From Candidatus Poribacteria bacterium (GTDB lineage Bacteria > Poribacteria > WGA-4E > WGA-3G): a DNA stretch of 64,000 nucleotides. The first letter of the stretch is position 1. Every line of letters starts with the position of its first letter. The translations under genes and the position numbers were made by a program. This document shows, piece after piece, positions 42,057 to 64,000 of this stretch. The DNA lies in NCBI GenBank assembly GCA_965197475.1, contig CBDANF010000003.1, forward strand, positions 3,232,001 to 3,296,000. Direction: 5' to 3'. Below the pieces are notes generated by a model. It searched no databases and was not told the DNA's origin. It saw nothing but the letters and a program-made list of their open reading frames with translations.

Positions 42057-44232
42057 TTAGTCTTGTCCTTTCAAATTAGCCCAACTTGTAGTAAACTTAC
42101 CACTTGCGGACACTAATCCTCGCAACCGAACGGTTGCTAACTGCTTCCGAACACCTGCATGTGACACATCCTCTATTTGATAAAAATACACAGTATTCGA
42201 TTTGGCAGTGGTATCAGTCCATGTATACGCATTGCGTTCACCTGTAGTGCCAGCACCTTGTATCATTTGAGGGTTGACAACCTTGAACTCACCATCTTTT
42301 GTACGACTGCGATAGATGTAGAAGCCTGCATTGTCAATTTCCGATTCGGTTGTCCATTTCAGCACAACGCCTGCTTCGGTGTGTTGTGCGCGGAAATGGG
42401 ATAAGGTGACAGGCAGCGGATCTTCACCGCGCTTGAGATATATCTTGACATCTGGGTTCTTTCGCAAGAGTGCGAGGAGCGGTTCTCTATCCTTAATTGG
42501 ATTTCCTTGAAGGTATAATGCTTCAAGGTTAATTAGCTCTGTGAGTGGACTTACATCACTGATTTGATTGTTTTCAAGACGTAATCTCCACTTCAATTCT
42601 GTCAATCCTGCAAGCGGATTAATATCGCTAATTTGATTACCCTGGAGATCTAAAGATCGCAATTTTGTCAATCCTGCAAGCGGACTAATATCGCTAATTT
42701 GATTGCCACCGAGTTGTAAGTACCACAATTCTGTCAATCATGCAAGTGGACTGACATCATTAATTTGGTTATTATAAAGTCGTAAGTTTATCAAATTGGT
42801 TAGTCCAGAAAATGGCTTCAAATCCTGGATCGGTGTTTGAAGGGAACCCAGGAATACATCTGTCAACTGCGTAAATTCTGCGATGGAACTTATATCATCA
42901 ATAGGATTGTCTGATAGCTTTATACGGAGTAAATTGGGTAGATCTTTGAGAGCACTGAAATCGCTAATCTGATTACCTAATAGGTCCACATATACTAAAT
43001 TCGGTAACTGTGCCAAGATAGCAATATCACTAATCTGATTGTAATAAAGATCCAAGTACTTTAGATTTCGCGCATGTTCGAGCCCCGTAAGATTCGTAAT
43101 TTGTCGACTCCTAAAACTAGTAAGTTGTGTTAACCCAAGCATATCCAATTGTGTGATGGTGCTGTTAGGTGCTAATCCCAACGCTTCCCGCACCACGGTT
43201 GCTAAATTCACATCTGGTATTGTGACAATCTCGTCAGAAAACGTGTCGGTAACATTGATTGGAAATCCATATATTGTGAAATTTCCAACACCATCAATAA
43301 CGTGAAGACTTACAGATTCAGATTGCGTTGATAACTCAGTCGTCACAAACTCGACGGTCTGATTTTCACCTGTTAAATTTTTGCAGCCCAGCAATTTAAC
43401 ATCACCTGCTCCTTCATCTCCAGAAGTCGCTACTGTTAACAAGTGTGCAATCTGGAGTCCATCAGGATCACTTACGGTGAATTGGAGGCGAATACCATAG
43501 GGTGGAGAGGCAGTTGGTTGAAGCATCTGGATCGTCGTTTCACCACGGTCGGGTGGAGTTTGGCGAGTATTGAAATAGCGATGGGCATCCAACCATTCAG
43601 CACTACACAATGACAATTCGGTTTTGGATCCGTAAGACATGAGATAGACATTATTTCTGAAATCGTGCCTTAAGCCAAAGCAATGCCCAAGTTCATGATG
43701 AGGAACCATACCTTCAAAATCTGGACCTGAACAAACTCCATCTGCGGGTATGAGAGCGATTCCTCCCCAATCTCCTGTCACATTTGTCTTGACGCTTGCT
43801 GTCCCACAGTTGGCACCTATCTGTCTAGTGCTAACATCCACAACAATGAAGTAGATATTTTTAGTCAAGTCAAATTGTTGAGAAACTTCCTTATCAACCT
43901 TAGCCGTAGTGTCATCACTGTGGTAATACGCATCATCAAAGTCTCCATTTACGCGATGTACGACAGTGTTGCCGTCACTATCCGCTTCAAACACGAAAGT
44001 TTTTCTGCCGAATCCGTGGGCGTTCCATCTCATTGGCGAAAAACGTCTGCATGTTTTTTATCAACTTATCGAACTTTGCGTTTATATCTGGATCAGGTGT
44101 GCGATCGCGGGGAACAAAATAGATAAGTCGGACGATATTGTGAGGTTCATTCGCTTGTGCAAAACTGTTCGGTACAAAGGCAAGCATTACAAATGTTAGT
44201 AGTGTAAGTGTAAAACATAACATCGTTTTCAT
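42057..44232 (-). pseudogene. Secreted metzincin-like zinc protease with internalin-type LRRs and a C-terminal sorting-like domain; frameshift and nonsense
   Basis: Signal peptide at 44232; an extra C near 44018 breaks ...EMERHGFGRKTF; HELGHCFGLRH with a downstream Met; TGA at 42738-42740 where a sister repeat has GGA (SPLAGLT); ends LPVTLSHF...GKFTTSWANLK. Confidence 0.8.
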
Positions 44233-44325: not shown

Positions 44326-47300
44326 TTACTTTCGTATCAACATCTTGCGCGTAGCAGAAAAATCACCTGCAGTGAGTGTATAAAAATAGATACCACTTGC
44401 AACAGATTCACCGAACTCATTTTTACCATCCCAATACGCTGCACGACTGCGACTTTGATAGGTGCCAGCGGGCAGGTGTCCTAACGCTAGCGTTCGAACT
44501 ATCTTACCATCTGCAGAATAGATAGAGATGCTAACATCGGCAGGTGCTGCCAACTGATACGGTATCCACGTCTCAGGATTGAACGGGTTGGGGAAGTTGG
44601 GAAGGAGTTCAGTTTGTATAGGCGTTGTTTGTGCTGACGGCGCACGGTTGTCAGCTTCTTCAGGAATTGTTATATCAAGGTCTAAACCTGGATGATCCGG
44701 AAGTGCCTCAATTGCTGCGACGAGTGTGCGGAGCGGTCCATAATCTGAAATAGAATTTCCAGCGAGCTTGAGCCTTCCCAGATTTGTCAAGTCTTCAAGT
44801 GGAGATATGTCGCTGATGCTGTTAGAGTGCAGATAGAGCGTTGTCAGTGAAGTCAACTCTTCAAGCGTTGATATATCGCTGATGCTGTTACCGCCCAGAT
44901 AGAGCGTTGTCAGTGAAGTTGACTCTTCAAGCGTTGATATATCGATGATGCTGTTACTGGTCAGACCGAGCGTTGTCAGTGAAGTCAAGTCTTCAAGTGC
45001 CGATATATTGCTGATACTGTTACCGGACAGATTGAGGTATGTGAGATTTGTCAAGTTTTCAAGCGTTGATATATCGCTGATGCCGTTATCCCGCAGATTG
45101 AGCCTTGTCAGATTTGTCAAGTTTTGAAGCGTTGATATATCGCTGAGGCCATTATCCCGCAGATTGAGCGATGTCAGTGAAATCAATCCATCAAAATCAC
45201 CTAATTGCAGTGTTGTGATCCCTTTATTGTCAAGACGAAGTGAAGTAATAGCTGCGAGGTGTGCCGCAGTCACATCATCTGCTGAATTCACACCTGCTGC
45301 TCGGACAATAGCATCACGCACCTGTTGTGTGCGTTCACTGAGCGGCAGAGGTGGAATTGTAATATCAAGCCATAAACTTCCATCAGCTGCCTTGATTACT
45401 GCAATGAGTCTACGGAGCGGTCCGTAATCTGATATCGTATTTCTACTGAGATCGAGCGTTGTCAGATTTGTCAAGTTTTGAAGCGTTGATATATCGCTGA
45501 TGCTGTTATGGCGCAGATCGAGGTATGTCAGATTTGTCAAATCTTCAAGGGCAGATATATCGCTGATGCTGTTATCGTCCAGATAGAGGTGTGTCAGATT
45601 TGTCAAGTTTTGAAGCGTTGATATATCGCTGATGCTGTTATCGTCCAGAGAGAGCCCTATCAGATTTGTCAAGTTTTGAAGCGTTGATATATCGCTGATG
45701 CTGTTATCGTCCAGACAGAGCCCTGTCAGATTTGTCAAGTTTTGAAGCGTTGATATATCGCTGATGCTGTTACCGTACAGATTGAGCGATGTCAGATTTG
45801 TCAAGTTTTGAAGCGTTGATATATCGCTGATGCTGTTATGGCGCAGACCGAGCCCTGTCAGATTTGTCAAATCTTCAAGGGCAGATATATCGCTGATGCT
45901 GTTATTCCACAGATAGAGGTATGTGAGATTTGTCAAGTTTTGAAGCGTTGATATATCGCTGATGCTGTTATGGCACAGATTGAGGTATGTCAGATTTGTC
46001 AAATCTTCAAGGGCAGATATATCGCTGATGCTGTTACCGTACAGAGAGAGCCCTGTCAGTGAAGTCAATCCATCAAAATCACCGGTTTGCAGTGTTGTGA
46101 TCCCTTTATTTATAAGATAAAGCGAAGTAATAGCTGCGAGGTGCGTTGCAGTCACATCATCTGCAGAACTAACCCCCGGCACTGCGGCAACAATAGCATC
46201 CTGCACCTGCCGTGTGCGTTCACTGATTGGTGTTGGAATTGTAATATCAAGGTATAAACGTCCACCAGCTTCCTTGATTACTGCAATGAGTCTGCGGAGC
46301 GGTCCGTAATCTGATATCGGATTTCCAGAGAGATTGAGCCATGTCAGATTTGTCAAGTTTTGAAGCGTTGATATATCGCTGATGCTGTTATCGTACAGAT
46401 AGAGGTATGTGAGATTTGTCAAGTTTTGAAGCGTTGATATATCGCTGAGGCTGTTAGCACCCAGATAGAGCGTTGTGAGATTTGTCAAGTTTTGAAGCGT
46501 TGATATATCGCTGAGGCTGTTAGCACCCAGATAGAGCGTTGTGAGATTTGTCAAGTCTTCAAGTGGTGATATATCGCTGAGGCTGTTACGGGACAGAGTG
46601 AGGTATGTGAGATTTGTCAAGTTTTGAAGCGTTGATATATCGCTGAGGCTGTTACGGGACAGAGTGAGGTATGTGAGATTTGTCAAGTTTTGAAGCGTTG
46701 ATATATCGCTGATGCTGTTACGGGACAGATTGAGCGTTGTCAGTGAAGTCAATCCATCAAAATCACCGGTTTGCAGTGTTGTGATCCCTTTATTGTCAAG
46801 ACGAAGCGAAGTAATAGCTGCGAGGTGTGTTGCTGTCACATCATCTGCAGAACTAACCCCTGGCACAGCTAGGACAATAGCATCACGCACCTGTTGTGTG
46901 CGGATTGGTGTTGGAATTGGAATATCAAGCCATAAACTTCCATTAGCTGCCACAATTGCTTCGATGAGTGTGCGGAGCGGTCCATAATCTGAAATAGAAT
47001 TTCCAGCGAGCTTGAGCGTTGTCAGATTTGTCAAGTCTTCAAGTGGAGATATATCGCTGATGCTGTTAGAGTGCAGATAGAGCTTTGTCAGATTTGTCAA
47101 CTCTTCAAGCGTTGATATATCGCTGATGCTGTTACCGCCCAGATAGAGCGTTGTCAGTGAAGTCAACTCTTCAAGCGTTGATATATCGATGATGCTGTTA
47201 CTGGTCAGACCGAGCGTTGTCAGATTTGTCAACTCTTCAAGCGCAGATATATTGCTGATGCTGTTACCGGACAGATTGAGGTATGTCAGATTTGTCAAGT

Positions 47301-48378
47301 TTTGAAGCGTTGATATATCGCTGATGCTGTTATCCCGCAGATTGAGGTATGTCAGATTTGTCAAGTTTTGAAGCGTTGATATATCGCTGATGCTGTTATC
47401 CCGCAGATTGAGGTATGTCAGATTTGTCAAGTTTTGAAGCGTTAATATATCGCTGAGGCTGTTATCCCGCAGATAGAGCGTTGTCAGTGAAGTCAATCCA
47501 TCAAAATCACCGGTTTGCAGTGTTGTGATCCCTTTATTGTCAAGACTAAGTGAAGTAATCGCTGCGAGGTGTGTTGCTGTCACATCATCTGCTGAATTCA
47601 CACCTGCTGCAGCAACAATAGCATCCTGCACCTGTTGTGTGCGTTCACTGAGCGGCAGAGATGGAATTGTAATATCAGGCCGTAAACTTCTACTAGCTGC
47701 CTCTATTGCTGCGATGAGTCTGCGGAGCGGTCCGTAATCTGATATCCCATTTCCAGCGAGCTTGAGCGTTGTCAGATTTGTCAAGTCTTCAAGTGGAGAT
47801 ATATCGCTGATGCTGTTACCGCCCAGATAGAGCTTTGTCAGTGAAGTCAAGTCTTCAAGCGGAGATATATCGCTGATGCTGTTACTGGTCAGACCGAGCG
47901 TTGTCAGTGAAGTCAACTCTTCAAGGGCAGATATATCGCTGATGCTGTTACTGGACAGAGTGAGGTATGTCAGATTTGTCAAGTTTTGAAGCGTTGATAT
48001 ATCGCTGATGCTGTTAGCGTTCAGAGTGAGGTATGTCAGATTTGTCAAGTTTTGAAGCGTTGATATATCGCTGAGGCCGTTAGAGGACAGACCGAGCGTT
48101 GTCAGTGAAGTCAATCCATCAAAATCACCTTCTTGCAGTGTTGTGATCCCTTTATTTCCAAGACGAAGCAAAGTAATCGCTGCGAGGTGTGTTTCGGTTA
48201 CATCGCTGGCAGTATTTATGCCCGGCACAGCAGCTACGATTTCATCGCGCACTTGTGGTGTGCGATCGGTAACAGGCGTGACAGCCGCATAACTCGTGCC
48301 ATATGTGCCGAGAATAATTAAAAGAGATACTAAAATAGATAAGACATACTTTTGATTTAGAAATTGTGTTTTCAACAT
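44326..48378 (-). CDS. Secreted multi-cassette LRR protein (5 capped cassettes of 22-aa internalin-like LRRs) with a FlgD-Ig/T9SS-like C-terminal domain
   Basis: Signal peptide; N-cap RTxQVRDAIV...HLAAIT; 6, 8, 7, 10 and 7 repeats; C-cap ISDYGPLRxL...LDITIP; NFPNPFNPETWIPY. Confidence 0.92.
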   Translation of the reverse strand: MLKTQFLNQKYVLSILVSLLIILGTYGTSYAAVTPVTDRTPQVRDEIVAAVPGINTASDVTETHLAAITLLRLGNKGITTLQEGDFDGLTSLTTLGLSSNGLSDISTLQNLTNLTYLTLNANSISDISTLQNLTNLTYLTLSSNSISDISALEELTSLTTLGLTSNSISDISPLEDLTSLTKLYLGGNSISDISPLEDLTNLTTLKLAGNGISDYGPLRRLIAAIEAASRSLRPDITIPSLPLSERTQQVQDAIVAAAGVNSADDVTATHLAAITSLSLDNKGITTLQTGDFDGLTSLTTLYLRDNSLSDILTLQNLTNLTYLNLRDNSISDISTLQNLTNLTYLNLRDNSISDISTLQNLTNLTYLNLSGNSISNISALEELTNLTTLGLTSNSIIDISTLEELTSLTTLYLGGNSISDISTLEELTNLTKLYLHSNSISDISPLEDLTNLTTLKLAGNSISDYGPLRTLIEAIVAANGSLWLDIPIPTPIRTQQVRDAIVLAVPGVSSADDVTATHLAAITSLRLDNKGITTLQTGDFDGLTSLTTLNLSRNSISDISTLQNLTNLTYLTLSRNSLSDISTLQNLTNLTYLTLSRNSLSDISPLEDLTNLTTLYLGANSLSDISTLQNLTNLTTLYLGANSLSDISTLQNLTNLTYLYLYDNSISDISTLQNLTNLTWLNLSGNPISDYGPLRRLIAVIKEAGGRLYLDITIPTPISERTRQVQDAIVAAVPGVSSADDVTATHLAAITSLYLINKGITTLQTGDFDGLTSLTGLSLYGNSISDISALEDLTNLTYLNLCHNSISDISTLQNLTNLTYLYLWNNSISDISALEDLTNLTGLGLRHNSISDISTLQNLTNLTSLNLYGNSISDISTLQNLTNLTGLCLDDNSISDISTLQNLTNLIGLSLDDNSISDISTLQNLTNLTHLYLDDNSISDISALEDLTNLTYLDLRHNSISDISTLQNLTNLTTLDLSRNTISDYGPLRRLIAVIKAADGSLWLDITIPPLPLSERTQQVRDAIVRAAGVNSADDVTAAHLAAITSLRLDNKGITTLQLGDFDGLISLTSLNLRDNGLSDISTLQNLTNLTRLNLRDNGISDISTLENLTNLTYLNLSGNSISNISALEDLTSLTTLGLTSNSIIDISTLEESTSLTTLYLGGNSISDISTLEELTSLTTLYLHSNSISDISPLEDLTNLGRLKLAGNSISDYGPLRTLVAAIEALPDHPGLDLDITIPEEADNRAPSAQTTPIQTELLPNFPNPFNPETWIPYQLAAPADVSISIYSADGKIVRTLALGHLPAGTYQSRSRAAYWDGKNEFGESVASGIYFYTLTAGDFSATRKMLIRK

Positions 48379-48432
48379 AAACTCCTTTTTTGTTAGTTTC
48401 AGACGGTAGATGCGGTTTGCTAACCGAGATTC

Positions 48433-48580
48433 TGTCTGAACCAGGATTCACAGGATTATAGGATTTTCAGGATTACAGAAGATTACCCATCTAATGCTAA
48501 CCCTAATAAGAGACAACTTGCAATCAAAGAAACCCAATAATCCTGGAAATCTGGAAATCCTGAAAATCCTGGTTCAGACA
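48433..48580. repeat. 148-bp inverted-repeat element with internal AGGATT short repeats
   Basis: Perfect termini TGTCTGAACCAGGATT...AATCCTGGTTCAGACA. Confidence 0.75.
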
Positions 48581-48585
48581 AGGCA

Positions 48586-51500
48586 TTACTTCAAAATAGC
48601 CATTTTGCGCAGGAAGGACACACTGTCCGCCTGCAGTTGATAGAAATAGACCCCTGCCGCAACCTTCTCACCGAATGTGTTTTTACCATCCCAATGGATA
48701 GCACGGCTACGACTCAGATAAACACCCGCAGGTTTCTGGCCTAACTTCAACTGCCGCACCACAACGCCCCGCATATCGTAGATTGTCAACGTGACCTCTG
48801 CTGGCTTGGACAGTTGATACGGTATCCACGTCTCAGGGTTGAACGGGTTGGGGAAGTTGGGAAGGAGTTCAGTTTGTATAGGCGTTGCTGGTGCTGACAG
48901 GGCACGGTTGTCAGCTTCTTCAGGAATTGTTATATCAAGGTATAAACTTCTACCAGCTGCCTCAATTACTGCGATGAGTCTGCGGAGCGGTCCGTAATCT
49001 GATATCGGATTTCCCCGGAGCCAGAGCCTTGTCAGATTTGTCAAGTTTTGAAGTGGAGATATATCGCTGAGGCTGTTATCGCCCAGATGGAGCCTTGTCA
49101 GTGAAGTCAATCCATCAAAATCACCGGTTTGCAGTGTTGTGATCCCTTTATTGTCAAGACTAAGCAAAGTAATAGCTGCGAGGTGTCTTGCTGTCACATC
49201 ATCTGCAGAACTAACCCCCGGCACTGCAGCAACAATAGCATCACGCACCTGCCGTGTGCGTTCACTGAGCGGCAGAAGTGGAATTGTAATATCAAGGTTT
49301 AAACGTCCACCAGCTGCCTCGATTGCTGCGATGAGTCTGCGGAGCGGTTCGTAATCTGATATCGGATTCCCCCAGAGCCAGAGCCTTGTCAGATTTGTCA
49401 AGTTTTGAAGCGGAGATATATCGCTGATGCTGTTATTGGTCAGATAGAGCCATGTCAGATTTGTCAAGTTTTGAAGCGTTGATATATCGCTGATGCGGTT
49501 AGAGCGCAGATCGAGCGTTGTCAGATTTGTCAGATTTGTCAAGTTTTGAAGCGTTGATATATCGCTGAGGCTGTTATCGCCCAGCTTGAGCCTTGTCAGT
49601 GAAGTCAATCCATCAAAATCACCGGTTTGCAGTGTTGTGATCCCTTTATCGTTAAGACTAAGTGAAGTAATAGCTGCGAGGTGTGTTCCTGTCACATCAT
49701 CTGCAGAACTAACCCCCGGCACTGCGGCAACAATAGCATCACGCACCTGTTGTGTGCGTTCACTGAGCGGCGGATCAATTGGTGTTGGAATTGTAATATC
49801 AAGTCTTAAACTTCCATCAGCTGCCTCGATTGCTGCGATGAGTCTGCGGAGCGGTCCGTAATCTGATATCGTATTTCCAGCGAGCCTGAGCGATGTCAGA
49901 TTTGTCAAATGTTCAAGCGCAGATATATCGCTGATGCTGTTAGAGCGCAGATAGAGGTATCTGAGATTTGTCAAATGTTCAAGCGCAGATATATCGCTGA
50001 TGCTGTTATTGTTTAGATAGAGGTATGTCAGTGAAGTCAATCCATCAAAATCACCGGTTTGCAGTGTTGTGATCCCTTTATTTATAAGATTAAGCAAAGT
50101 AATAGCAGCGAGATGTGTTGCTGTCACATCATCTGCTGAACTAACCCCCGGCACTGCAGCAACAATAGCATCACGCACCTGCCGTGTGCGTTCACTGAGC
50201 GGCGGATCAATTGGTGTTGGAATTGTAATATCAAGGTTTAAACGTCCACCAGCTGCCTCGATTGCTGCGATGAGTCTGCGGAGCGGTCCGTAATCTGATA
50301 TCGTATTTCCAGCGAGCGTGAGCCATCTCAGATTTGTCAAGTCTTCAAGTGGAGATATATCGCTGATGCTGGTACCGGACAGTTCGAGCGTTGTCAGATT
50401 TGTCAAATGTTGAAGCGTTGATATATCGCTGATGCTGGTATTGTACAGATAGAGCAATGTCAGATTTGTCAAATGTTCAAGCGCAGATATATCGCTGATG
50501 CTGGTATTATTGCCCAGATTGAGCGATGTGAGACTTGTCAAGTTTTCAAGCGCAGATATATCGCTGAGGCTGTTATCCCGCAGAGTGAGATATGTCAGAT
50601 TTGTCAAGTTTTCAAGCGCAGATATATCGATGAGGCTGTTATTCCGCAGATCGAGGTCTGTGAGTGCGGTGAGACCATTAAAATCACCTGCTTGCAGTGA
50701 TGAAATGCCCGATCCCCTTATGTCAAGTTCTGTAATAGCAGCGAGGTGTGCTGCAGTCACATCATCTGCAGAACTAACCCCCGGCACTGCAGCAACAATA
50801 GCATCACGCACCTGCTGTGTGCGTTCACTGAGCGGCGGATCTGGTGTATCGGGTACGTCGGTAACATTAATCGTGACAGTAATGCTATCTGTCCCCCCAT
50901 TCCCATCAGAAACAGAGACCGTGACCGAGTAAGATGTCTTTGTTTCATAATTGAGGGATGCTTTGGTTTGCAGCTGCCCGGAACTACTAACAATACCAAA
51001 AGATGCCGCATCCGTGCCACCGAGTGTATAGGTGAGCGTAGTACCACTATCCGGATCAGTCGCAGCAACCGCACTGCCGATGTTATTACCGGAGGCTGTA
51101 TTTTCTGCGATAGACCGTGATGTGCTGCTGCTATCACTGAACACGGGTGCCTCGTTGACATTCGTGACATTGATCGTGATAGTAATAGTATCCGTAAGGG
51201 TTCCATCTGATACCGTTATAACTACGGTATAGGATGTCTTTGTTTCATAGTCAAGTGCTGCCTTGGTTAGCAACCTTCTGGTCGTGCTATCAAAGGTAAA
51301 CGATGCTGCATCCGCGCCACCCAGACTATAGGTCAACGAGTCACCATCAGGCTCACTCACATCCAAAGCATTACCGATGCTTGTATTTGCAGCGGTATTC
51401 TCAGGAATGGAGCGCGTATCGCTGCTATGTTTAAACGCGGGTGCCTCGTTGACATTCGTGACATTGATTGTGACGCTAATGCTATCACTACCGCCGTTCC

Positions 51501-54500
51501 CATCAGAGACAGAGATTGTCACAGAATAGGAGGACCTGCTTTCATAATTGAGAGATGCGCTTGTGCGGAGCTGCCCGTTTGTGCTATTGATGCCAAACGA
51601 TGCCGCATCCGTGCCACCGAGCGTCCAAGTCAACGTATCGTCATCCGCATCTGTCGCAGCAACGGCAGTACCGATGTTATTACCGGCAGCGGTGTTCTCC
51701 GCAACGGAACGTGATGTGCTTGTGCCATCAGTGAGGGTCGGTGCATCGTTTGCGTCTGTAACGTTGATTGTAACGGTGATGCTATCACTCCCACCATTCC
51801 CATCGGAGACAGAGATTGTCACAGAATAGGAGGACCTGCTTTCATAATTGAGAGCTGCGCTTGTGCGCAACTGCCCGTTTGTGCTGTTAATGTCAAACGA
51901 GGACGCATCTGTGCCACCGAGACTATATTCTAAGGTGTCGTTATCTGGATCGGTTGCAGAGACGGCACTGCCGATGTTTATGCCGGCTGCCGTGTTTTCT
52001 GCGATGGAGCGCGTGGTGCTGATGCCGTCTGTGAAGGTCGGGGCGGTGTTACCACCCTCAGGTGGAATTGTAATATCAAGTCTTAAACTTCCACCAGCTA
52101 CCTCGATTGCTGCGATGAGTCTGCGGAGCGGTCCGTAATCTGAAATCGTATTTCCACGGAGATAGAGCCTTGTCAGATTTGTCAAATCTTCAAGCGCAGA
52201 TATATCGCTGATGCTGTTAGAGCGCAGATGGAGCCATGTCAGATTTGTCAAGTTTTGAAGCGGAGATATATCGCTGATGCTGGTATTGTTTAGATAGAGG
52301 TGTCTGAGATTTGTCAAATCTTCAAGCGGAGATATATCGCTAATGCGGTTATTGTTTAGATAGAGGTATGTCAGTGAAGTCAATCCATCAAAATCACCGG
52401 TTTGCAGTGTTGTGATCCCTTTATTTATAAGATTAAGCAAAGTAATAGCTGCGAGGTGTGTTCCTGTCACATCATCTGCAGAACTAACCCTCGGCACTGC
52501 AGCAACAATAGCATCACGCACCTGCCGTGTGCGTTCACTGAGCGGCGGATCAATTGGTATTGGAATTGTAATATCAAGGTTTAAACGTCCACCAGCTGCC
52601 TCGATTGCGGCGATGAGTCTGCGGAGCGGTCCGTAATCTGATATCGTATTTCCACTGAGATTGAGCCTTGTCAGATTTGTCAAGCTTTCAAGCGCAGATA
52701 TATTGCTGAGGCTGGTATCGGACAAAGAGAGGTATCTCAGATTTGTCAAGTTTTCAAGCACAGATATATCGCTGAGGCTGGTATTATTGCCCAGATTGAG
52801 TGCTCTCAGATTTGTCAAATGTTCAAGCACAGATATATCGCTGATGCTGGTATCGTCCAGATAGAGCGTTGTCAGATTTGTCAAGTTTTGAAGCGGAGAT
52901 ATATCGCTGATGCTGGTATCCTGCAGATAGAGCGATGTGAGATTTGTCAAGTTTTCAAGCGGAGATATATCGCTGAGGCTGGTATTATTGCCCAGATTGA
53001 GGTCTGTGAGACTTGTCAAGTTGTGAAGCGCAGATATATCGCTGAGGCTGTTATCCCGCAGAGTGAGATATGTCAGATTTGTCAAGTTTTGAAGCGCAGA
53101 TATATCGCTGAGGCTGTTATTCCGCAGATCGAGGTCTGTGAGTGCGGTGAGACCATTAAAATCACCTGCTTGCAGTGATGAAATGCCCGATTCCCTTATG
53201 TCAAGTTCTTTAATAGCAGCGAGGTGTGCTGCAGTCACATCATCTGCAGAACTAACCCCCGGCACTGCAGCAACAATAGCATCGCGCACCTGCCGTGTGC
53301 GTTCACTGAGCGGCGGATCAATTGGAATTGTAATATCAAGGTCTAAACTTCTATCAGCTGCCTCGATTGCTGCGATGAGTCTGAGGAGCGGTCCGTAATC
53401 TGAAATCGTATTTCCACGGAGATTGAGCCTTCCCAGATTTGTCAAGCTTTCAAGCGCAGATATATCGCTGATGCTGTTATCGGACAGATCGAGCGTTGTC
53501 AGATTTGTCAAGTTTTGAAGCGCAGATATATCGATGATGCTGTTATCGGGCAGATGGAGCAATGTCAGATTTGTCAAGTTTTGAAGCGGAGATATATCGA
53601 TGATGCTGTTATAGGACAGAAGGAGCCATGTGAGATTTGTCAAGTTTTGAAGCGGAGATATATCGATGATGCTGTTATCGATCAGATAGAGGTATCTGAG
53701 ATTTGTCAAGTTTTGAAGCGGAGATATATCGCTGAGGGGGTTATAGGACAGATAGAGCGTTGTGAGATTTGTCAAGTTTTGAAGCGGAGATATATCGCCG
53801 ATGCTGTTATCGGTCAGATCGAGCAATGTGAGATTTGTCAAGTTTTGAAGCGGAGATATATCGCTGAGGGGGTTATAGGACAGATCGAGCAATGTGAGAT
53901 TTGTCAAGTTTTGAAGCGTTGATATATCGCTGATGCTGTTATCGCCCAGAGAGAGCCTTGTCAGTGAAGTCAATCCATCAAAATCACCGGTTTGCAGTGT
54001 TGTGATCCCTTTATTGTCAAGACTAAGTGAAGTAATAGCTGCGAGGTGTGTTGCAGTCACATCATCTGCAGAACTAACCCCCGACACTGCGGCAACAATA
54101 GCATCGCGCACCTGCCGTGTGCGTTCACTGAGCGGCGGATCAATTGGTGGTGGAATTGTAATATCAAGGTGTAAACGTCCACCAGCTGCCTCGATTGCTG
54201 CGATGAGTCTACGGAGCGGTCCGTAATCTGATATCGAATTTTTAGCGAGCGTGAGGTATCTCAGATTTGTCAAGTTTTCAAGTGGAGATATATCGCTGAG
54301 GCTGTTATCGTCCAGACCGAGCGTTGTCAGATTTGTCAAGTTTTGAAGCGTTGATATATCGCTGATGCTGTTATCGGTCAGACCGAGCGTTGTCAGATTT
54401 GTCAAGTCTTCAAGGGCAGATATATCGCTGAGGTTGTTATCGGGCAGACTGAGCGTTGTCAGATTTGTCAAGTCTTCAAGGGCAGATATATCGCTGAGGC

Positions 54501-57500
54501 TGTTACCGGACAGATAGAGCGTTGTCAGATTTGTCAAGTCTTCAAGGGCAGATATATCGCTGAGGCTGTTATTGTACAGATCGAGCCTTGTCAGTGAAGT
54601 CAATCCATCAAAATCACCGGTTTGCAGTGTTGTGATCCCTTTATCGTCAAGACGAAGTAAAGTAATCGCTGCGAGGTGTGTTGCTGTCACATCATCTGCA
54701 GAACTAACCCCCGGCACTGCAGCAACAATAGCATCACGCACCTGCCGTGTGCGTTCACTGAGCGGCGGATCTGGTGTATCGGGTACGTCGGTAACATTAA
54801 TCGTGACGGTAATGCTATCTGTCCCCCCATTCCCATCAGAAACAGAGACCGTGACCGAGTAAGATGTCTTTGTTTCATAATTGAGGGATGCTTTGGTTTG
54901 CAGCTGCCCAGAACTACTAACAATACCAAAAGATGCCGCATCCGTGCCACCGAGCGTCCAAGTCAACGTATCGTCATCCGCATCTGTCGCAGCAACGGCA
55001 GTACCGATGTTATTACCGGCAGCGGTGTTCTCCGCAACGGAACGTGATGTGCTTGTGCCATCAGTGAGGGTCGGTGCATCGTTTGCGTCTGTAACGTTGA
55101 TTGTGACGCTAATGCTATCACTACCGCCGTTCCCATCAGAGACAGAGATTGTCACAGAATAGGAGGACCTGCTTTCATAATTGAGAGATGCGCTTGTGCG
55201 GAGCTGCCCGTTTGTGCTATTGATGCCAAACGATGCCGCATCCGTGCCACCGAGCGTCCAAGTCAACGTATCGTCATCCGCATCTGTCGCAGCAACGGCA
55301 GTACCGATGTTATTACCGGCAGCGGTGTTCTCCGCAACGGAACGTGATGTGCTTGTGCCATCAGTGAGGGTCGGCGCATCGTTTGCGTCTGTAACGTTGA
55401 TTGTAACGGTGATAGTATCCGTGCTGCTACCATCAAAAGCCGTGACCGTTACCGTATATGAGTTCTTAGCTTCGTAGTCAAGTGCAGCACTGGTTTGCAG
55501 CTGCCCTGTTGTGCTAACAATACTGAATGCGGATGCATCGGTGCCGCTGAGACTATAGGTTAAGCTATCATTGTCCGCATCTGTCGCACCAACCGCACTG
55601 CCGATGTTTATGCCGGAGGCGGTGTTTTCTGCTACGGAGCGGGTAACGGCTGCGCCATCCGTGAACACCGGTGGTGTTGGAATTGTAATATCAAGGTCTA
55701 AACTTCTACCAGCTGCCTCAATTGCTGCGATGAGTCTGAGGAGCGGTCCGTAATCTGATATCGGATTTCCCCGGAGCCAGAGCCTTGTCAGATTTGTCAA
55801 ATCTTCAAGCGCAGATATATCGCTGAGGCGGTTAGAGCGCAGATAGAGGTATCTGAGATTTGTCAAATCTTCAAGCGCAGATATATCGATGAGGCGGTTA
55901 TAGGACAGATAGAGCGTTGTGAGATTTGTCAAATCTTCAAGCACAGATATATCGCTGAGGCTGGTATTGTACAGATAGAGCGATGTGAGATTTGTCAAAT
56001 CTTCAAGCGCAGATATATCGCTGAGGCTGGTATTATTGCTCAGATGGAGCCATGTGAGATTTGTCAAGTTTTCAAGCACAGATATATCGCTGATGCTGTT
56101 ATAGGACAGATAGAGCCATGTCAGATTTGTCAAGTTTTGAAGCGGAGATATATCGCTGATGCTGTTATCGCCCAGATCGAGCGATGTCAGTGAAGTCAAT
56201 CCATCAAAATCACCGGTTTTCAGTGTTGTGATCCCTTTATTGCCAAGACCAAGTGAAGTAATAGCTGCGAGGTGCGTTGCAGTCACATCATCTGCAGAAC
56301 TAACCCCCGGCACTGCGGCAACAATAGCATCGCGCACCTGCTGTGTGCGTTCACTGAGCGGCGGATCTGGTGTATCGGGTACGTCGGTAACATTAATCGT
56401 GACAGTAATGCTATCTGTCCCCCCATTCCCATCAGAAACAGAGACCGTGACCGAGTAAGATGTCTTTGTTTCATACTCCAGGGCTGCTTTGGTTTGCAGC
56501 TGCCCGGAACTGCTAACAATACCAAAAGATGCCGCATCCGTGCCACCGAGTGTATAGGTGAGCGTAGTACCACTATCCGGATCAGTCGCAGCAACCGCAC
56601 TGCCGATGTTATTACCGGAGGCTGTATTTTCTGCGATAGACCGTGATGTGCTGCTGCTATCACTGAACACGGGTGCCTCGTTGACATTCGTGACATTGAT
56701 CGTGATAGTAATAGTATCCGTAAGGGTTCCATCTGATACCGTTACAACTACGGTATAGGATGTCTTTGTTTCATAGTCAAGTGCTGCCTTGGTTAGCAAC
56801 CTTCTGGTCGTGCTATCAAAGGTAAACGATGCTGCATCCGCGCCACCCAGACTATAGGTCAACGAGTCACCATCAGGCTCACTCACATCCAAAGCATTAC
56901 CGATGCTTGTATTTGCAGCGGTATTCTCAGGAATGGAGCGCGTATCGCTGCTATGTTTAAACGCGGGTGCCTCGTTGACATTCGTGACATTGATTGTGAC
57001 GCTAATGCTATCACTACCGCCGTTCCCATCAGAGACAGAGATTGTCACAGAATAGGAGGACCTGCTTTCATAATTGAGAGATGCGCTTGTGCGGAGCTGC
57101 CCGTTTGTGCTATTGATGCCAAACGATGCCGCATCCGTGCCACCGAGACTATATTCTAAGGTGTCGTTATCTGGATCGGTTGCAGCGACAGGTGTGCCGA
57201 TGTCATTACCGGCAGCGGTGTTCTCCGCAACGGAACGTGATGTGCTTGTGCCATCGGTGAGGGTCGGCGCATCGTTTGCGTCTGTAACGTTGATTGTAAC
57301 GGTGATAGTATCCGTGCTGCTACCATCAAAAGCCGTGACCGTTACCGTATATGAGTTCTTAGCTTCGTAGTCAAGTGCAGCACTGGTTTGCAGCTGCCCT
57401 GTTGTGCTAACAATACTGAATGCGGATGCATCGGTGCCGCTGAGACTATAGGTTAAGCTATCATTGTCCGCATCTGTCGCACCAATCGCACTGCCGATGT

Positions 57501-62500: not shown

Positions 62501-64000
62501 TCGTCAAAAATACCCGATGGCAAGGAATTCAAACCGTTGTCCCACAAACTGAGTTCTGTCAGTGAAGTGAGCTCGTCAAAGACATCTGATGGCAATGAAG
62601 TCAACAACGGATTTTTTTCTATCTCAAGTTTTGTCAGAGCGGTAAGATCATCGAAATCACTGGCTTTCAGGCTTACTGCCCCTGCATTGATTATTTCAAG
62701 TTCGGTAATAGCGGCAATATGTTCCGCAGTCACATCATTCGGAGAATTTACGCCCGGGATCGCAGCAACGATAGCATCTTGCACCTGTGGTGTACGTCCG
62801 GAGAGCAAATTAAGATTGTAATCTATGTACATATCAGGGTTGTTTTCAAGCAGCCTGAGGATTGGTGCCTGACTCACAATCGGGTTCCCAGCGATATGCA
62901 AATGTGTAAGTGATGTCACATTTTCAACGGCAGACATATCACCGATTTGATTGTTTTGCAGGTTAAGTTTTTTCAATACGGTATTATTGTCAAAAACACC
63001 CGATGGCAAAGAACTCAACCGGTTAGACGATAGGTTAAGGTTTTCCAGTGCGGTGAGCTCGTCAAAAACACCCGATGGCAAGGAAGTCAACCGGTTTCTC
63101 CATAGGTTGAGGTCTTTTAGTGCGGTGAGCTCGTCAAAAATACCCGACGGCAGAGAACTCAATTGGTTAATCGCAAGGTCAAGTTTTGTGAGTTCGGTGA
63201 GCCCATCAAAAACATCAGATGGCAAAGAAGTCAACTTGTTCTCAGACAGGTCAAGTTCTTTCAGTGCGGTGTTATTGTCAAAAACATCCGATGACAAGGA
63301 ACTTAACCAGTTAGACTCAAAGTTAATTTTTTCCAGTACGGTGAGCTCGTCAAAAATACCTGACAGCAAGGAACTTAACCGGTTTTGATGCAGGTGAAGG
63401 TTTTTCAGTGCGGTGAGCTCGTCAAAAATACCTGATGGCAAAGACCATAAACCGTTGCCGGGCAGCCAGAGTGTATCCAGTGCGGTGAGCTCGTCAAAAA
63501 CACCTGATGGCAAGGAACTCAAGCCGTTGTCCCACAGACTGAGTTCTGTCAGTGCGGTGAGTTCGTCAAAAATATCAGACGGCAAAGGCCCTAACGACTG
63601 ATTATGTTCTATCTCAAGTTTTGTCAGTCCGGTGAGCCCGTTGAAATCACCGGCATTCAGTCTAGTGAGCCCTACGCTATTTAGTTCAAGTTCGGTAATA
63701 GCGGCAAGGTGCGCCGCGGTAACATCAGCAGCGGAAGTTACACCCGACACTGCGGCAACAATAGCGTCGCGCACCTGCGGCGTGCGATTACTGAGGGGAC
63801 CCAGGTCATCGCCGCTCTCTGTGACGTTGATCCTCACAGTGATAGTATCGCTTCCGCCTTCCCCATCGGAGACAGTGATTGTCACCGTGTAGGTGCTCTT
63901 CGTGTCATAGTCAAGTTGATCCTTGGTTTGCAGCTGCCCTGTTGTGCTGACAATACCAAACGATGCAGCATCCGTGCCACTGAGCGTCCAAGTCAACGTG
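59530..64000 (-). CDS. Partial (5' end beyond the window) LRR-cadherin-Ig-dockerin protein with a FlgD-Ig/T9SS-like C-terminus
   Basis: 24-aa repeats LSSLPSGVFDELTAL..L.L..N; cadherin repeats; dockerin-like DVNEDGSVDATD...DVNWDNTVDADD; NYPNPFNPETWIPY. Confidence 0.9.
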   Translation of the reverse strand, partial: TLTWTLSGTDAASFGIVSTTGQLQTKDQLDYDTKSTYTVTITVSDGEGGSDTITVRINVTESGDDLGPLSNRTPQVRDAIVAAVSGVTSAADVTAAHLAAITELELNSVGLTRLNAGDFNGLTGLTKLEIEHNQSLGPLPSDIFDELTALTELSLWDNGLSSLPSGVFDELTALDTLWLPGNGLWSLPSGIFDELTALKNLHLHQNRLSSLLSGIFDELTVLEKINFESNWLSSLSSDVFDNNTALKELDLSENKLTSLPSDVFDGLTELTKLDLAINQLSSLPSGIFDELTALKDLNLWRNRLTSLPSGVFDELTALENLNLSSNRLSSLPSGVFDNNTVLKKLNLQNNQIGDMSAVENVTSLTHLHIAGNPIVSQAPILRLLENNPDMYIDYNLNLLSGRTPQVQDAIVAAIPGVNSPNDVTAEHIAAITELEIINAGAVSLKASDFDDLTALTKLEIEKNPLLTSLPSDVFDELTSLTELSLWDNGLNSLPSGIFDELTALEDLSLYENDLTSLPSDVFDGLTALKILDLQNNKIDDMSAVENVTSLTSLHISGNPISDYGPLRRLKQNNPNVNIDITIPPEESANNAPVFTDGESTTRSVAENTDAGENIGDPVSATDSDTSDTLTWTLSGTDAESFDIVDTTGQLQTSAALDYDTKNTYTVTITVSDGNGGTDTITVTINVTEVDDNIAPLSTDNRPGQNKQTDQDVDQVTNNAPVFTEGDSTTRAIDENTAADTNIGSAVTATDADNDPLEYTLGGYNAASFDIDSETGHLKTKAWLDYERKNSYTVTITVSDGSLTDSITVTINVNNVNDAPAFAIVSIVAAGSESPPVTRSVAENTAAGENIGTPVAAVDQENDTLMYTLSGDDASSFSIDSETGQLKTKAALDYETKTSYSVTITVSDGSLTDTIAVTINVTDVDDNRAPVFLLSNIIRSIEIDGDTAAGTNIGDPVSATDADNDTLTYTLGGTDAASFDIDSTTGQLQTTAAFISDTRSDYSVIVTATDGNGGSASVDVTVTATRRAPQVTNNAPVFQYGSSITLSINKGEEVGTSIRATDEDDDILTYSLGGTDASLFSLDEDHEYYLKSNAALDYDGKTSYSVTITVSDGNGGSDTTTVTITDPAPEVEIWTLIYREEPDWVLKLDTETGIVRASFSGLFVTSLFKHNSISFTRPPGVQFDNSFQVSVVFQEEVSGFEQSELTLTDNTAGATISGWRSQETWFGYVVDADIDVTMSGSVTFNVAAGAATDSAGQPNPVAESKTVTVTIELTDYPPWDVNEDGSVDATDSALVTAALGQTGEDIVNSRTDVNWDNTVDADDVTLVTYHIEDEEVAPSIIRAFSLLDKKTLEKLDPATLQGYLDILRTESDGSPRYLRAIAIVESVLAAIRPNKTQLLANYPNPFNPETWIPYHLAKASDVQITIYDARGAVVRQLDLGHQREGYYTHRSRAAHWEGKNDVGERVATGIYFYQLQADNVSFLRKMVILK

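Follow-up and report, generated by a model that had tools for sequence, protein, structure and literature searches.

Two adjacent genes, A and B, within a window of 64,000 nucleotides of Candidatus Poribacteria bacterium DNA probably encode germline repertoires of binding modules carried on exported, adhesin-like proteins, produced by repeat duplication and reshuffling together with diversifying selection. In a sponge symbiont of the Candidatus Poribacteria type, both products would be giant exported proteins of the "eukaryotic-like repeat" kind, with autonomous leucine-rich repeat (LRR) solenoids strung along them. The repeats would have spread by recent duplication of units and cassettes, by reshuffling and probably by gene conversion, which would account for the high internal conservation of their DNA. 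Selection would have kept four codons per unit (the x positions of xLxLxxN) different, yielding a germline-encoded set of binding surfaces that differ from one another and in which Tyr, Asp, Ser, Thr, Gly, Asn and Arg abound. Such a germline pattern of diversifying selection is known from fungal immune receptors; no description of it in bacterial LRR adhesins was found in the literature searched.

Gene organization and capped cassettes

Genes A and B and the 3' part of gene C lie on the minus strand of the window (Table 1); the source genome comprises 5.7 Mb in 3 contigs and is 92.7% complete. The gene B open reading frame as called spans 48586-59475 and opens at TTG. Its product begins with a leader, a cadherin domain and one cassette of 24-residue typical LRRs, followed by cadherin blocks, nine cassettes of the 22-residue type (49 repeats in total) and a sorting domain. 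Gene C contains cadherins, N-capped cassettes with 24-residue typical LRRs, a dockerin-like segment and a sorting domain. Pfam LRR_4 matched gene A with E = 2.8e-155 and gene B with E = 2e-221, so the LRR assignment is not due to chance; LRR_8 and Cadherin were matched as well. The Pfam search returned 12 Cadherin stretches, and of genes A and B only gene B carries them. The cadherin stalks proposed in a preliminary description of this DNA are thus present in gene B, where they may serve as spacers, and missing from gene A. The spacer upstream of gene A contains two inverted elements of ~45 bp with ~38 copies genome-wide, and an identical copy of the spacer lies upstream of gene C, beyond the window.

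A regular-expression count recovered exactly the 14 cassettes and 87 repeats that had been described in the two genes, five cassettes in A and nine in B. Repeats are 22 residues long in 82 of the 87 instances, 23 in four and 25 in one, and the final repeat of each of the 14 cassettes fuses into the ISDYGPLRRLIA C-cap. The earlier picture of independent modules is borne out in that the cassettes are capped, autonomous-looking LRR units; each solenoid would consist of a two-helix N-cap, 2-10 repeats of the 22-residue internalin/SDS22 class and a helix-plus-strand C-cap. The first cassette of gene B, a 15th with the same N-cap, carries LRRs reading LxxLxLxxNxLxxLPxxxF and has no ISDYGPL C-cap.

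Table 1. Positions of genes, cassettes and other features in the window.
Feature	Position	Strand	Description
Gene A	44326..48378	-	1350 aa; five capped LRR cassettes in tandem (38 repeats) between a signal-peptide-like leader and a C-terminal T9SS type A sorting domain
Gene A sorting domain	44329..44607	-	TIGR04183, 37.7 bits (cut-off 23)
Cassette 5	44662..45336	-	gene A residues 1015-1239, 7 repeats
Cassette 4	45352..46221	-	gene A residues 720-1009, 10 repeats; modelled
Cassette 3	46234..46905	-	gene A residues 492-715, 7 repeats
Cassette 2	46912..47646	-	gene A residues 245-489, 8 repeats; paralogue of cassettes 5 and 1
Cassette 1	47662..48267	-	gene A residues 38-239, 6 repeats
Spacer upstream of gene A	48379..48585	.	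207 bp
Gene B	48586..59361	-	~3590 aa from likely ATG near 59361
Gene B sorting domain	48589..48867	-	TIGR04183, 35.2 bits (cut-off 23)
Cassette 14	48922..49263	-	gene B residues 3405-3518, 2 repeats
Cassette 13	49279..49761	-	gene B residues 3239-3399, 4 repeats, the first of 25 aa
Cassette 12	49786..50193	-	gene B residues 3095-3230, 3 repeats
Cassette 11	50218..50826	-	gene B residues 2884-3086, 6 repeats
Gene B cadherin block	~50827-52062	-	approximate, by eye
Cassette 10	52063..52536	-	gene B residues 2314-2471, 4 repeats; paralogue of cassette 12
Cassette 9	52561..53304	-	gene B residues 2058-2305, 8 repeats; paralogue of cassette 11
Cassette 8	53323..54126	-	gene B residues 1784-2051, 9 repeats
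Cassette 7	54151..54756	-	gene B residues 1574-1775, 6 repeats
Gene B cadherin block	~54757-55677	-	approximate, by eye
Cassette 6	55678..56352	-	gene B residues 1042-1266, 7 repeats
Gene B cadherin block	56356..57708	-	~residues 590-1040; limits approximate, judged by eye on the translated inter-cassette sequence
Gene B first cassette	57841..58590	-	limits approximate; N-cap, then 24-residue typical LRRs
Gene C, 3' part	59530..64000	-	4005-aa open frame extending past the window

Repeat framework and variable codons

The DNA consensus of the repeat reads CTG ACA xxx CTC xxT CTG xxx xxT AAC AGC ATC AGC GAT ATA TCT ACG CTT CAA AAC TTG ACA AAT, in agreement with the near-invariant framework reported previously, and the four xLxLxxN codons are where variation concentrates. 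Amino acid entropy is 2.6-3.1 bits at these codons and 0-1.1 bits at 15 of the 18 framework codons, the remaining three being codons 16 and 19 (~1.7 bits each) and codon 18 (1.1 bits). The third base of the x2 and x4 codons is nearly fixed (entropy 0.11 and 0.00 bits). Whole units are 69% identical in amino acid sequence between repeats, and the framework alone 81%. The framework codons are not those preferred by the genome (CTG 11%, CTC 14%, AGC 12%, ATA 21%).

Y, D, S, T, G, N or R account for 240 of the 272 x residues. The dominance of Y, D, S, G, N and R had been recognized, and T belongs with them; H (10) and W (5), which had also been listed as frequent, are minor, and K, E and Q are nearly absent. 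LRR positions 7-8 are usually small or polar, so part of this composition is presumably generic. The cap strands also vary, as had been noted: a single residue of the C-cap strand changes (R, W, Y, W, D, D, H, D, N, R, N, R, N, Y), and differences occur in the N-cap strand too.

Predicted fold and export

Cassette 4, in which near-identical frameworks carry the most diverse x residues, was modelled with AlphaFold (pLDDT 92, pTM 0.88). In the model a predicted beta strand holds x1 and x2 in 10 of 10 repeats and x3 in 5 of 10, x4 follows directly, and the cap strands are likewise beta, consistent with the proposal that the variable sites cluster on the concave sheet. The best solved relatives by sequence in the PDB were the Chlorobium Roco LRR 5il7 (E = 5e-81) and internalin A (E = 1e-72). 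The four x residues of a repeat, which lie in the concave beta sheet of the model or beside it, are presumed to form the binding surface, and the concave face of the cassettes may bind protein or glycan. As ligands we consider molecules of the host matrix or host cell surface most likely; other microbes or phages are possible targets.

Signal-peptide-like leaders were read by eye at the N-termini of the proteins, and the C-termini of all three genes matched TIGR04183 at 35-38 bits (NCBIfam cut-off 23); 55 paralogous C-terminal domains occur in the genome. Leaders and sorting domains support the secreted or surface location put forward in the preliminary description, and a Sec-type leader together with a T9SS type A sorting domain probably takes A and B to the cell surface or outside. 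All matches to T9SS machinery fall below curated cut-offs, including PorU-like matches of up to E = 5e-83 and a weak SprA-like frame.

Selection signature

Diversity was estimated from 68 inner 22-residue repeats (2278 repeat pairs), each divided into a 54-nt framework and 12 x nucleotides. The x codons had a pN of 0.569, compared with a pS of 0.159 for the framework and 0.127 for the core framework. The ratio of x pN to framework pS was 3.6 (bootstrap range 3.1-4.3, which understates the uncertainty since the compared repeats are recombining, non-independent paralogues). Synonymous divergence of the framework as high as x-site divergence, which had been named as contrary to the proposal, was not seen (0.13-0.16 vs 0.57). 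Taken codon by codon, pN was 0.47-0.69 across the four x positions, and no other codon exceeded 0.38. Furthermore, 63 of the 2278 pairs had an identical framework, and 61 of these 63 nevertheless had 2-10 differences among their 12 x nucleotides, mostly 5-8; one framework haplotype was common to 11 repeats in 6 cassettes that together carried 10 different x quadruplets.

Among nine related arrays, x pN exceeded framework pS in six and was approximately equal to it or lower in three older or more divergent ones (L010, L053, L041). The paralogous cassette pairs 9/11 and 2/5 keep their x residues, and types 9 and 11 keep most of theirs across species, the x pattern of cassette 9 being partly retained in the orthologue of the closest congener. 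Not every module is therefore evolving fast, and the retained surfaces are under purifying, not diversifying, selection.

Turnover between species

Relatives, searched for with cassette 10 as the query, were found in sponge-associated Candidatus Poribacteria, Latescibacterota, Vicinamibacterales and Foliamicus MAGs. The gene B orthologue of the closest congener (G003) has 5 cassettes of 8, 11, 11, 8 and 11 repeats in a different domain order. The congeners have neither repeat number nor cassette order in common, and the 61-codon leader is 97% identical (pS 0.026). Only 7 x quadruplets are common to both (73 distinct in the window, 46 in G003). All-against-all framework pS between G000 and G003 was 0.18-0.20, the same as within genomes and lower than the background of single-copy genes (0.29, 0.41, 0.46 and 0.51) and of the sorting domain (0.39).

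This turnover, the intermixed repeat pools of the two genomes and the identical frameworks that span 6 cassettes in both genes would also fit a contingency locus or antigenic variation. In that case near-identical frameworks would act as recombination substrates, and arrays would be reshuffled often within the population and differ between cells of one strain. The x-x associations are weak, with small excess mutual information, as such reshuffling would have it (p = 0.001 for x1-x2, 0.0045 for x1-x3, 0.0005 for x3-x4, 0.023 for x2-x4, and 0.26 and 0.38 for the other two). This explanation is nevertheless unlikely, as paralogous cassettes 2/5, 9/11 and 10/12 retain their repeat order, suggesting shuffling too slow to erase history. 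No conspecific contigs occurred in JGI metagenomes (best match 62% identical), and public sequencing runs gave only fragmentary short-read contigs, with joints that were short-sided or from another organism. Such variation could act on top of germline selection and would be the nearest bacterial analogue of VLR or vls-type variation.

Other explanations of the variation

That A and B are ordinary, recently amplified LRR adhesins with unconstrained x residues, the pN excess being an artefact of a homogenized or constrained framework, is quite unlikely. Gene conversion or constraint at the DNA level may have lowered the synonymous diversity of the framework, and the position of framework pS below the genomic background between species means that neutral divergence may be underestimated; the three older arrays mentioned above point the same way. 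However, conversion that homogenizes the framework should also hit the interleaved x codons, which are separated by single framework codons, unless diversity were favoured, and x pN is at least as high as inter-species single-copy pS. In addition, the third bases of the x codons vary as little as the framework, so that the region is not simply one that mutates faster, and the restricted set of x residues is not a neutral spectrum.

Targeted hypermutation, with NNT/NNC x codons arising from a diversity-generating retroelement (DGR; adenine mutagenesis of AAY) or another site-directed mutator, is very improbable and already largely refuted. The codon logic of DGR variable regions, with free first two bases and a fixed third base, does recur at x2 and x4, where the third base is T, and x differences in the identical-framework pairs fall 163/156/53 on codon positions 1/2/3. 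Against this, framework adenines never vary (ACA, AAC, AGC, ATC, GAT ATA, CAA AAC, ACA AAT), no template repeat was found, and, in contrast to a DGR variable region, the variable sites are scattered through 87 units across 12 kb. The RVT_1 reverse transcriptase had no match in the genome (2 candidates scored), in a search that did detect the family among control genomes (3 of 14). Gene A matched no PADLOC family. An assembly artefact of collapsed or chimeric repeats is scarcely credible even though 66-bp tandem repeats are hard to assemble and their order is known from the assembly alone, since the genome lies in so few contigs, the frames are intact across 4.1 and 10.9 kb with correctly ordered caps in every cassette, other species, assembled independently (L001, L002, L005, L018, L004), show the same x/framework pattern, and the many distinct x sets on one framework hold whatever the repeat order.

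Comparison with known systems

The germline repertoire favoured here resembles, in its DNA, the highly internally conserved (HIC) repeats of fungal NLRs (HET-E/D/R, NWD WD40; ANK, TPR) and bacterial NLR-like proteins. According to the available parts of those reports, these share near-identical repeat DNA, few hypervariable codons per unit under diversifying selection on an interaction surface, and shuffling or concerted evolution with differing repeat numbers (PMC4986451, bioRxiv 10.1101/2020.01.06.895854). For the fungal WD repeats, the portion available describes four positions of each repeat, on the interaction surface, as hypervariable, together with concerted evolution and polymorphism in the number of repeats (PMC4986451). 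In contrast, A and B have an LRR fold, are multi-domain, exported and adhesin-like, have no NOD domain and carry many separately capped arrays per polypeptide. Prokaryotic NLRs typically have no LRRs, and the unit identity in A and B lies below the 85% threshold of the HIC work, as far as the available text goes (bioRxiv 10.1101/2020.01.06.895854).

The term VLR-like, used in the preliminary description, holds as a functional analogy: like VLRs and repebodies, the cassettes are capped LRR solenoids with a fixed scaffold and diversity in concave beta-strand positions, and repebody and VLR chimeras (3rfj, 6ka7, 5gs2) were among the PDB sequence matches. It does not extend to structure or mechanism, as the units have 22 rather than the 24 residues of jawless-vertebrate VLRs, cysteine-rich LRRNT/LRRCT caps are missing, and the modules are all germline-encoded in intact ORFs, with no evidence of somatic copy-choice assembly or of silent cassettes alongside, in bacterial proteins apparently exported through a T9SS-type tail. 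DGR variable proteins share NNY-like variable codons, an invariant scaffold and a surface or binding role, and differ in the points raised above.

LRR proteins and cadherins are reported to abound in Poribacteria, Latescibacterota and Acidobacteriota (PMC8163846, PMC9531527), and sponge MAGs show LRR/cadherin enrichment with lateral transfer between lineages (PMC8163846), in the available parts of these papers. A and B match these eukaryotic-like repeat proteins in organisms, phyla and domain families. There the proteins are treated at the level of Pfam counts, and the literature search found no description of capped-cassette architecture, DNA-level internal conservation or hypervariable x codons for them in the text available.

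Listeria internalins (InlA, InlB, InlH), whose concave face is the receptor-binding surface, share the 22-residue LRR class and the helical N-cap. Beyond the PDB match to InlA, NCBIfam internalin_A was matched with E = 2e-46, although all NCBIfam internalin scores were far under their cut-offs (158.7 vs 1600). No LRR_adjacent inter-repeat Ig domain was among the Pfam matches listed (for gene B, the best 25 of 27 families). Unlike internalins, A and B have a T9SS sorting domain in place of an LPXTG or GW anchor, and 5-9 capped LRR domains per protein with near-identical repeat DNA.

Organization of the cassette-bearing genes

Three giant genes (A, B, and C) are arranged head to tail on the minus strand, each with LRR_4 and LRR_8 matches (Pfam; E = 2.8e-155 for gene A and 2e-221 for gene B) and an FlgD_ig/Por_Secre_tail-like C-terminus; gene B also has 12 Cadherin stretches. 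Capped leucine-rich repeat (LRR) cassettes, nearly constant in framework and variable at the four x codons of xLxLxxN, are a real feature of genes A and B. They are best described as a germline repertoire of capped internalin-class LRR putative binding modules, carried by adhesin-like, T9SS-type exported proteins of a sponge symbiont and evolving in the "highly internally conserved repeat" (HIC) mode with diversifying selection on four predicted concave-face codons.

Features of the cassette locus and its surroundings, with positions in the window
Feature	Position	Strand	Remarks
Gene A	44326-48378	minus	1350 aa; cassettes 1-5
Gene B	48586-59475 (ORF)	minus	3629 aa; probable ATG near 59361; cassettes 6-14
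Gene C, 3' part	from 59530, continuing past window end	minus	open frame in genome 4005 aa
Cadherin blocks of gene B	50827-52062, 54757-55677, 56356-57708	minus	TRF period 300, 78-86% matches
Metzincin-like ORF	42738-44033	minus	431 aa; directly downstream of gene A; HELGHCFGLRHD motif by eye
207-bp spacer upstream of gene A	48379-48585		100% identical copy upstream of gene C, G000:C3:3303479-3303685
~49-bp palindromic element	59464-59511, B-C spacer		GCACAAACT...AGTTTGTGC type; ~25 genome copies, 96% identity

Motif searches yielded five N-cap/C-cap pairs in gene A and nine in gene B. The preliminary description, whose stretch comprised gene A and gene B as far as cassette 6, had counted 14 cassettes and 87 repeats in two adjacent genes, and splitting the cassettes returned the same counts, with 6, 8, 7, 10, 7, 7, 6, 9, 8, 4, 6, 3, 4, and 2 repeats in cassettes 1 to 14, respectively. 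Repeat length was 22 aa in 82 of the 87 repeats, 23 aa in four, and 25 aa in one, and the final repeat of every cassette runs into the ISDYGPLRRLIA C-cap. The caps are helical and without cysteines. One extra N-cap in gene B is followed by 24-residue typical LRRs, and two more such arrangements occur in gene C. Within the genome (G000) the 22-residue cassettes are found mainly in genes A and B, with one other at C3:2553648-2559884; all 27 tblastn matches to the N-cap in G000 fall on contig C3.

Several further variations were seen in gene B. Thr (ACC) takes the place of the conserved ladder Asn (AAC) in seven of the 68 inner repeats (6.4, 9.4, 9.5, 9.7, 10.2, 11.4, and 11.5, given as cassette and repeat), and a one-residue insertion (NNTSLSDIS) occurs in four repeats; all repeats of both kinds belong to gene B. 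Long cadherin stretches of this gene are repeated near-verbatim (e.g. APTLTDGTSTSRSVAENTAAGN), which means that duplication has involved whole cadherin-plus-cassette segments, and the cadherin blocks themselves are recent duplicates.

Variable codons on a near-fixed DNA framework

The DNA pattern was established from the 68 inner 22-residue repeats, for which the framework (54 nt, 18 codons) has the consensus CTG ACA. CTC. CTG.. AAC AGC ATC AGC GAT ATA TCT ACG CTT CAA AAC TTG ACA AAT. Amino-acid entropy was 2.6-3.1 bits at the x positions (x1-x4; unit positions 3, 5, 7, and 8), 0-1.1 bits at 15 of the 18 framework positions, and approximately 1.7 bits at each of positions 16 and 19. Within the x codons, bases 1 and 2 vary while base 3 is almost constant, with a third-base entropy of 0.11 bits at position 5 (NNT) and 0.00 bits at position 8 (NNT). 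There are 56 distinct x quadruplets among the 68 repeats; Y, D, S, T, G, N, or R account for 240 of the 272 x residues, and K, E, and Q together for four.

The proportions of nonsynonymous (pN) and synonymous (pS) differences were obtained by Nei-Gojobori counting for all 2278 repeat pairs, making this a pairwise test among recombining repeats. Values of pN 0.569 and pS 0.201 were found for the x sites, and of pS 0.159 and pN 0.097 for the framework (core framework pS 0.127). The ratio of x-site pN to framework pS was 3.6, with a range of 3.1-4.3 on resampling of repeats that is too narrow because the repeats are kin and recombine. Per-codon pN was 0.645, 0.472, 0.689, and 0.489 at x1 to x4, and the highest values outside the x codons were 0.377 (codon 16) and 0.283 (codon 19). 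The fixed scaffold and hypervariable face of the preliminary description are thus upheld by per-site entropy and by the synonymous comparison, framework divergence not being equally high. Furthermore, an identical 54-nt framework is shared by 63 of the 2278 pairs, and yet 61 of these show 2-10 differences (usually 5-8) among the 12 x nucleotides; a single framework haplotype common to 11 repeats in six cassettes and both genes is associated with 10 different x quadruplets. Codon bias does not explain the constancy of the framework codons, since these are not the ones favored by the genome (CTG 11%, CTC 14%, AGC 12%, and ATA 21%, counted over 18 further ORFs in the window).

Predicted structure

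Cassette 4 was modelled from its single sequence (P0004, 304 aa; pLDDT 92, pTM 0.88). In order, the model contains two N-terminal helices, a strand/short-helix period of 22 residues, a long C-terminal helix, and a last strand. In LRRs generally, the x positions of xLxLxx point to the concave sheet. The single-cassette prediction proposed in the preliminary description is in agreement: DSSP assigned x1 and x2 to a strand in 10 of 10 repeats and x3 in five of 10, with x4 in the loop directly after the strand, and the variable positions of the caps are likewise in strands. The clustering of x sites on one surface is accordingly a statement from DSSP states and general LRR geometry, not a coordinate measurement. 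Among solved proteins, the Chlorobium Roco LRR domain 5il7 (E = 5e-81) is the closest in sequence, followed by internalin A (E = 1e-72; query residues 45-272), with repebody and VLR (variable lymphocyte receptor) chimeras lower in the PDB ranking. The C-cap presumably resembles the SDS22-type "LRRcap" motif.

Relationship to known families and systems

The cassettes share 22-residue LRRs and a helical N-terminal cap with the class 1 internalins of Listeria. However, all NCBIfam internalin scores were far under their cut-offs (internalin_A 158.7 bits against 1600; internalin_H 138.1 against 1050), placing the cassettes in the internalin/SDS22 repeat class but not among the internalins. In internalins the LRRs are followed by an Ig-like inter-repeat region, and the protein carries an LPXTG or GW wall anchor; no LRR_adjacent or wall-anchor family was present among the Pfam matches of gene A or among the best 25 of 27 families for gene B, and these genes differ from internalins in ending in a T9SS type A sorting domain.

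The VLRs of jawless vertebrates have cysteine-rich LRRNT and LRRCT caps and 24-residue LRRV units, whereas the caps examined here are helical and cysteine-free and the units have 22 residues. VLRs are assembled somatically, flanking silent cassettes completing a germline gene that is itself incomplete, whereas all 14 cassettes here lie inside two complete ORFs. No within-sample variants of the array were demonstrated in public short-read contigs, where a negative is weak evidence. The term "VLR-like" in the preliminary description is therefore retained as an analogy and dropped as a membership.

A parallel is seen with the HIC repeats of fungal NLRs in that the cassettes, too, have a small number of hypervariable codons with a signature of diversifying selection on a predicted binding surface. 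PMC4986451 describes fungal NLR repeats as having high internal conservation, concerted evolution, and repeat-number polymorphism, and their WD repeats as having four hypervariable positions per repeat on the interaction surface. In the present case, large differences in repeat number are seen between congeneric species. Framework nucleotide identity was 88.8%, and whole-unit amino-acid identity was 69%, under the 85% HIC criterion of that paper. A further study reports this regime for bacterial NLR-like proteins, in their WD and TPR repeats, and describes such proteins as typically without LRRs (bioRxiv 10.1101/2020.01.06.895854). The regime, known earlier from the NLR sensor repeats of fungi and suspected in those of bacteria, is seen here on an LRR scaffold in exported proteins.

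A known anti-phage defence system was also considered and rejected, as the PADLOC defence models gave 0 families for gene A and the adjoining metzincin-LRR ORF.

Comparison with related arrays

Relatives of cassette 10 were found at 70 loci, mostly in Candidatus Poribacteria MAGs and otherwise in Latescibacterota, Vicinamibacterales, and Foliamicus MAGs. A search of 1.84 billion representative proteins yielded 5998 matches at E <= 1e-30, many of them giant proteins with 10-28 matching stretches, which makes the multi-cassette design a common one in public data. Enrichment of Poribacteria, Latescibacterota, and Acidobacteriota in LRRs, other eukaryote-like repeats, and cadherins, as well as lateral transfer of these sponge-symbiont repeat proteins, is reported in PMC8163846 and PMC9531527. 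A search of the open-access literature on sponge-symbiont or eukaryotic-like LRR proteins with positive selection or hypervariability returned no description of the present pattern.

In the nearest relative, the congener G003, the dehydratase neighbouring the locus is 94% identical in protein, and no LRR cassettes adjoin it. An orthologous cluster of four giant genes is located elsewhere in G003 (locus L002 and its flanks), where the gene B orthologue has another domain order and five cassettes with 8, 11, 11, 8, and 11 repeats. Only seven x quadruplets are common to both (73 distinct in the window, 46 in G003). Cassettes 9 and 11 clearly match two G003 cassettes, retaining the series DDRN-YTRD-xNGN-LYYN-TYDD. 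Some of the presumed binding surfaces are conserved between the two genomes and others turn over.

Between G000 and G003, pS was 0.29 for the dehydratase, 0.46 for LarA, 0.51 for an 880-aa ORF, and 0.41 for an RND adaptor, all single-copy, and 0.39 for the gene B sorting domain. All-against-all framework pS between the two genomes was 0.18-0.20, and within genomes 0.16 and 0.20-0.23. The expected concerted evolution between G000 and G003 was not seen, within-genome pS being equal to between-genome pS. The gene B leader and upstream part (59293-59475, 61 codons) are 97% identical to the L002 orthologue with a pS of 0.026, and the domains differ immediately after the signal peptide. The low framework pS is compatible both with recent locus exchange between lineages and with DNA-level constraint or conversion bias, and it cautions that neutral divergence may be higher than framework pS suggests.

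In comparisons with more distant arrays, pS was higher between arrays (0.35-0.52) than within them (0.20-0.31), a signature of lineage-specific amplification or concerted evolution. The x-site pN was above framework pS in six of nine comparator arrays and not in three older ones (L010, L053, and L041), indicating that the x-site test is capable of failing.

Mode of diversification and its implications

In their NNY appearance the x codons resemble the targets of diversity-generating retroelements, an origin rejected because of the 0 RVT_1 matches in G000 (5.70 Mb, 3 contigs, 92.7% complete) together with the invariant framework adenines. A general local mutator is argued against by the quiet third bases of the x codons, which show no more synonymous change than the framework does. 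This leaves selection for amino-acid diversity, acting on a repeat family that is young or continually homogenised.

A more far-reaching possibility, which we consider rather improbable, is that these arrays are the bacterial equivalent of the recognition repertoires formed by VLRs or HIC-NLRs, with the 54-nt framework retained as a recombination substrate and frequent recombination within and between genes, and even between species, constantly dealing new x-codon "paratope" combinations. If so, the symbiont population would hold a shifting library of LRR binding surfaces against host, phage, or competitor ligands, and the intermixed repeat pools of G000 and G003, in which framework pS (0.18-0.20) lies under the genomic background (0.29-0.51) and to which the 97% identity of the leader can be added, would be a footprint of exchange.

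Sponge symbionts are rich in eukaryotic-like LRR and cadherin proteins. This locus shows at least some of these proteins to be sets of separately capped putative binding modules and not generic sticky repeats, with concave-face residues diversified and all else, including synonymous sites, nearly fixed. The cassettes are concrete small units (114-290 residues) that are predicted to fold well and can be expressed for ligand hunting, a natural analogue of engineered repebody libraries. They also make it practicable to ask whether the surface repertoires of symbionts evolve by arms race or by host matching.

Export

The leaders of proteins A and B are, by eye, basic and then hydrophobic. The T9SS type A sorting domain (TIGR04183) was detected in the C-terminal 110 residues of each of A, B, and C (37.7, 35.2, and 36.2 bits, respectively, against a cut-off of 23), while Pfam Por_Secre_tail scored 18.7 and 20.1 for A and B, under the cut-off of 27, and 32.2 for C, over it. 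Three PorU-like frames in G000, with a best piece of 278.9 bits (E = 5e-83), were all under the 420-bit cut-off, and one SprA-like frame gave five weak matches in colinear order, the best of them reaching 65.8 bits where the cut-off is 200. A surface or extracellular location of A and B is likely, given the leaders and the sorting domains. The T9SS-type C-terminal domain had 55 tblastn matches in G000; together with the three large PorU-like frames, this suggests that a Poribacteria-type genome encodes an extensive T9SS-like secretome.

Public sequence data

Public sequencing comprised 10 runs from five studies, of which three runs (two samples, one study) contained 52-64% of the sampled words and one RNA run contained 5%. 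The runs examined (X1, X3, X10, and X4) provided only fragmentary short-read Logan contigs, and pieces within the LRR arrays were short and placeable at several positions. The variants listed in gene A include x2 in repeat 1.5, both x3 and codon 10 in repeat 3.7, the cassette 5 N-cap, and a single site outside the LRRs; contig joints with short sides, or from the small-share run X4, were left out. RNA contigs reached only conserved parts, the sorting domain among them, with 90-95% likeness. The 25 relatives from JGI metagenomes included no conspecific contig, the best being 62% identical.

Neighbouring elements

At its end the metzincin-like ORF has LRRs of the internalin type, with an NCBIfam internalin_A match (E = 1.2e-20) that is under the cut-off. 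It has no obvious leader or sorting domain and may therefore be truncated. The 207-bp spacer, at which public contigs stop or diverge, contains two inverted elements of ~45 bp (CCAGGATT.../...AATCCTGG) with ~38 copies in the genome, and looks like a MITE- or REP-like element.
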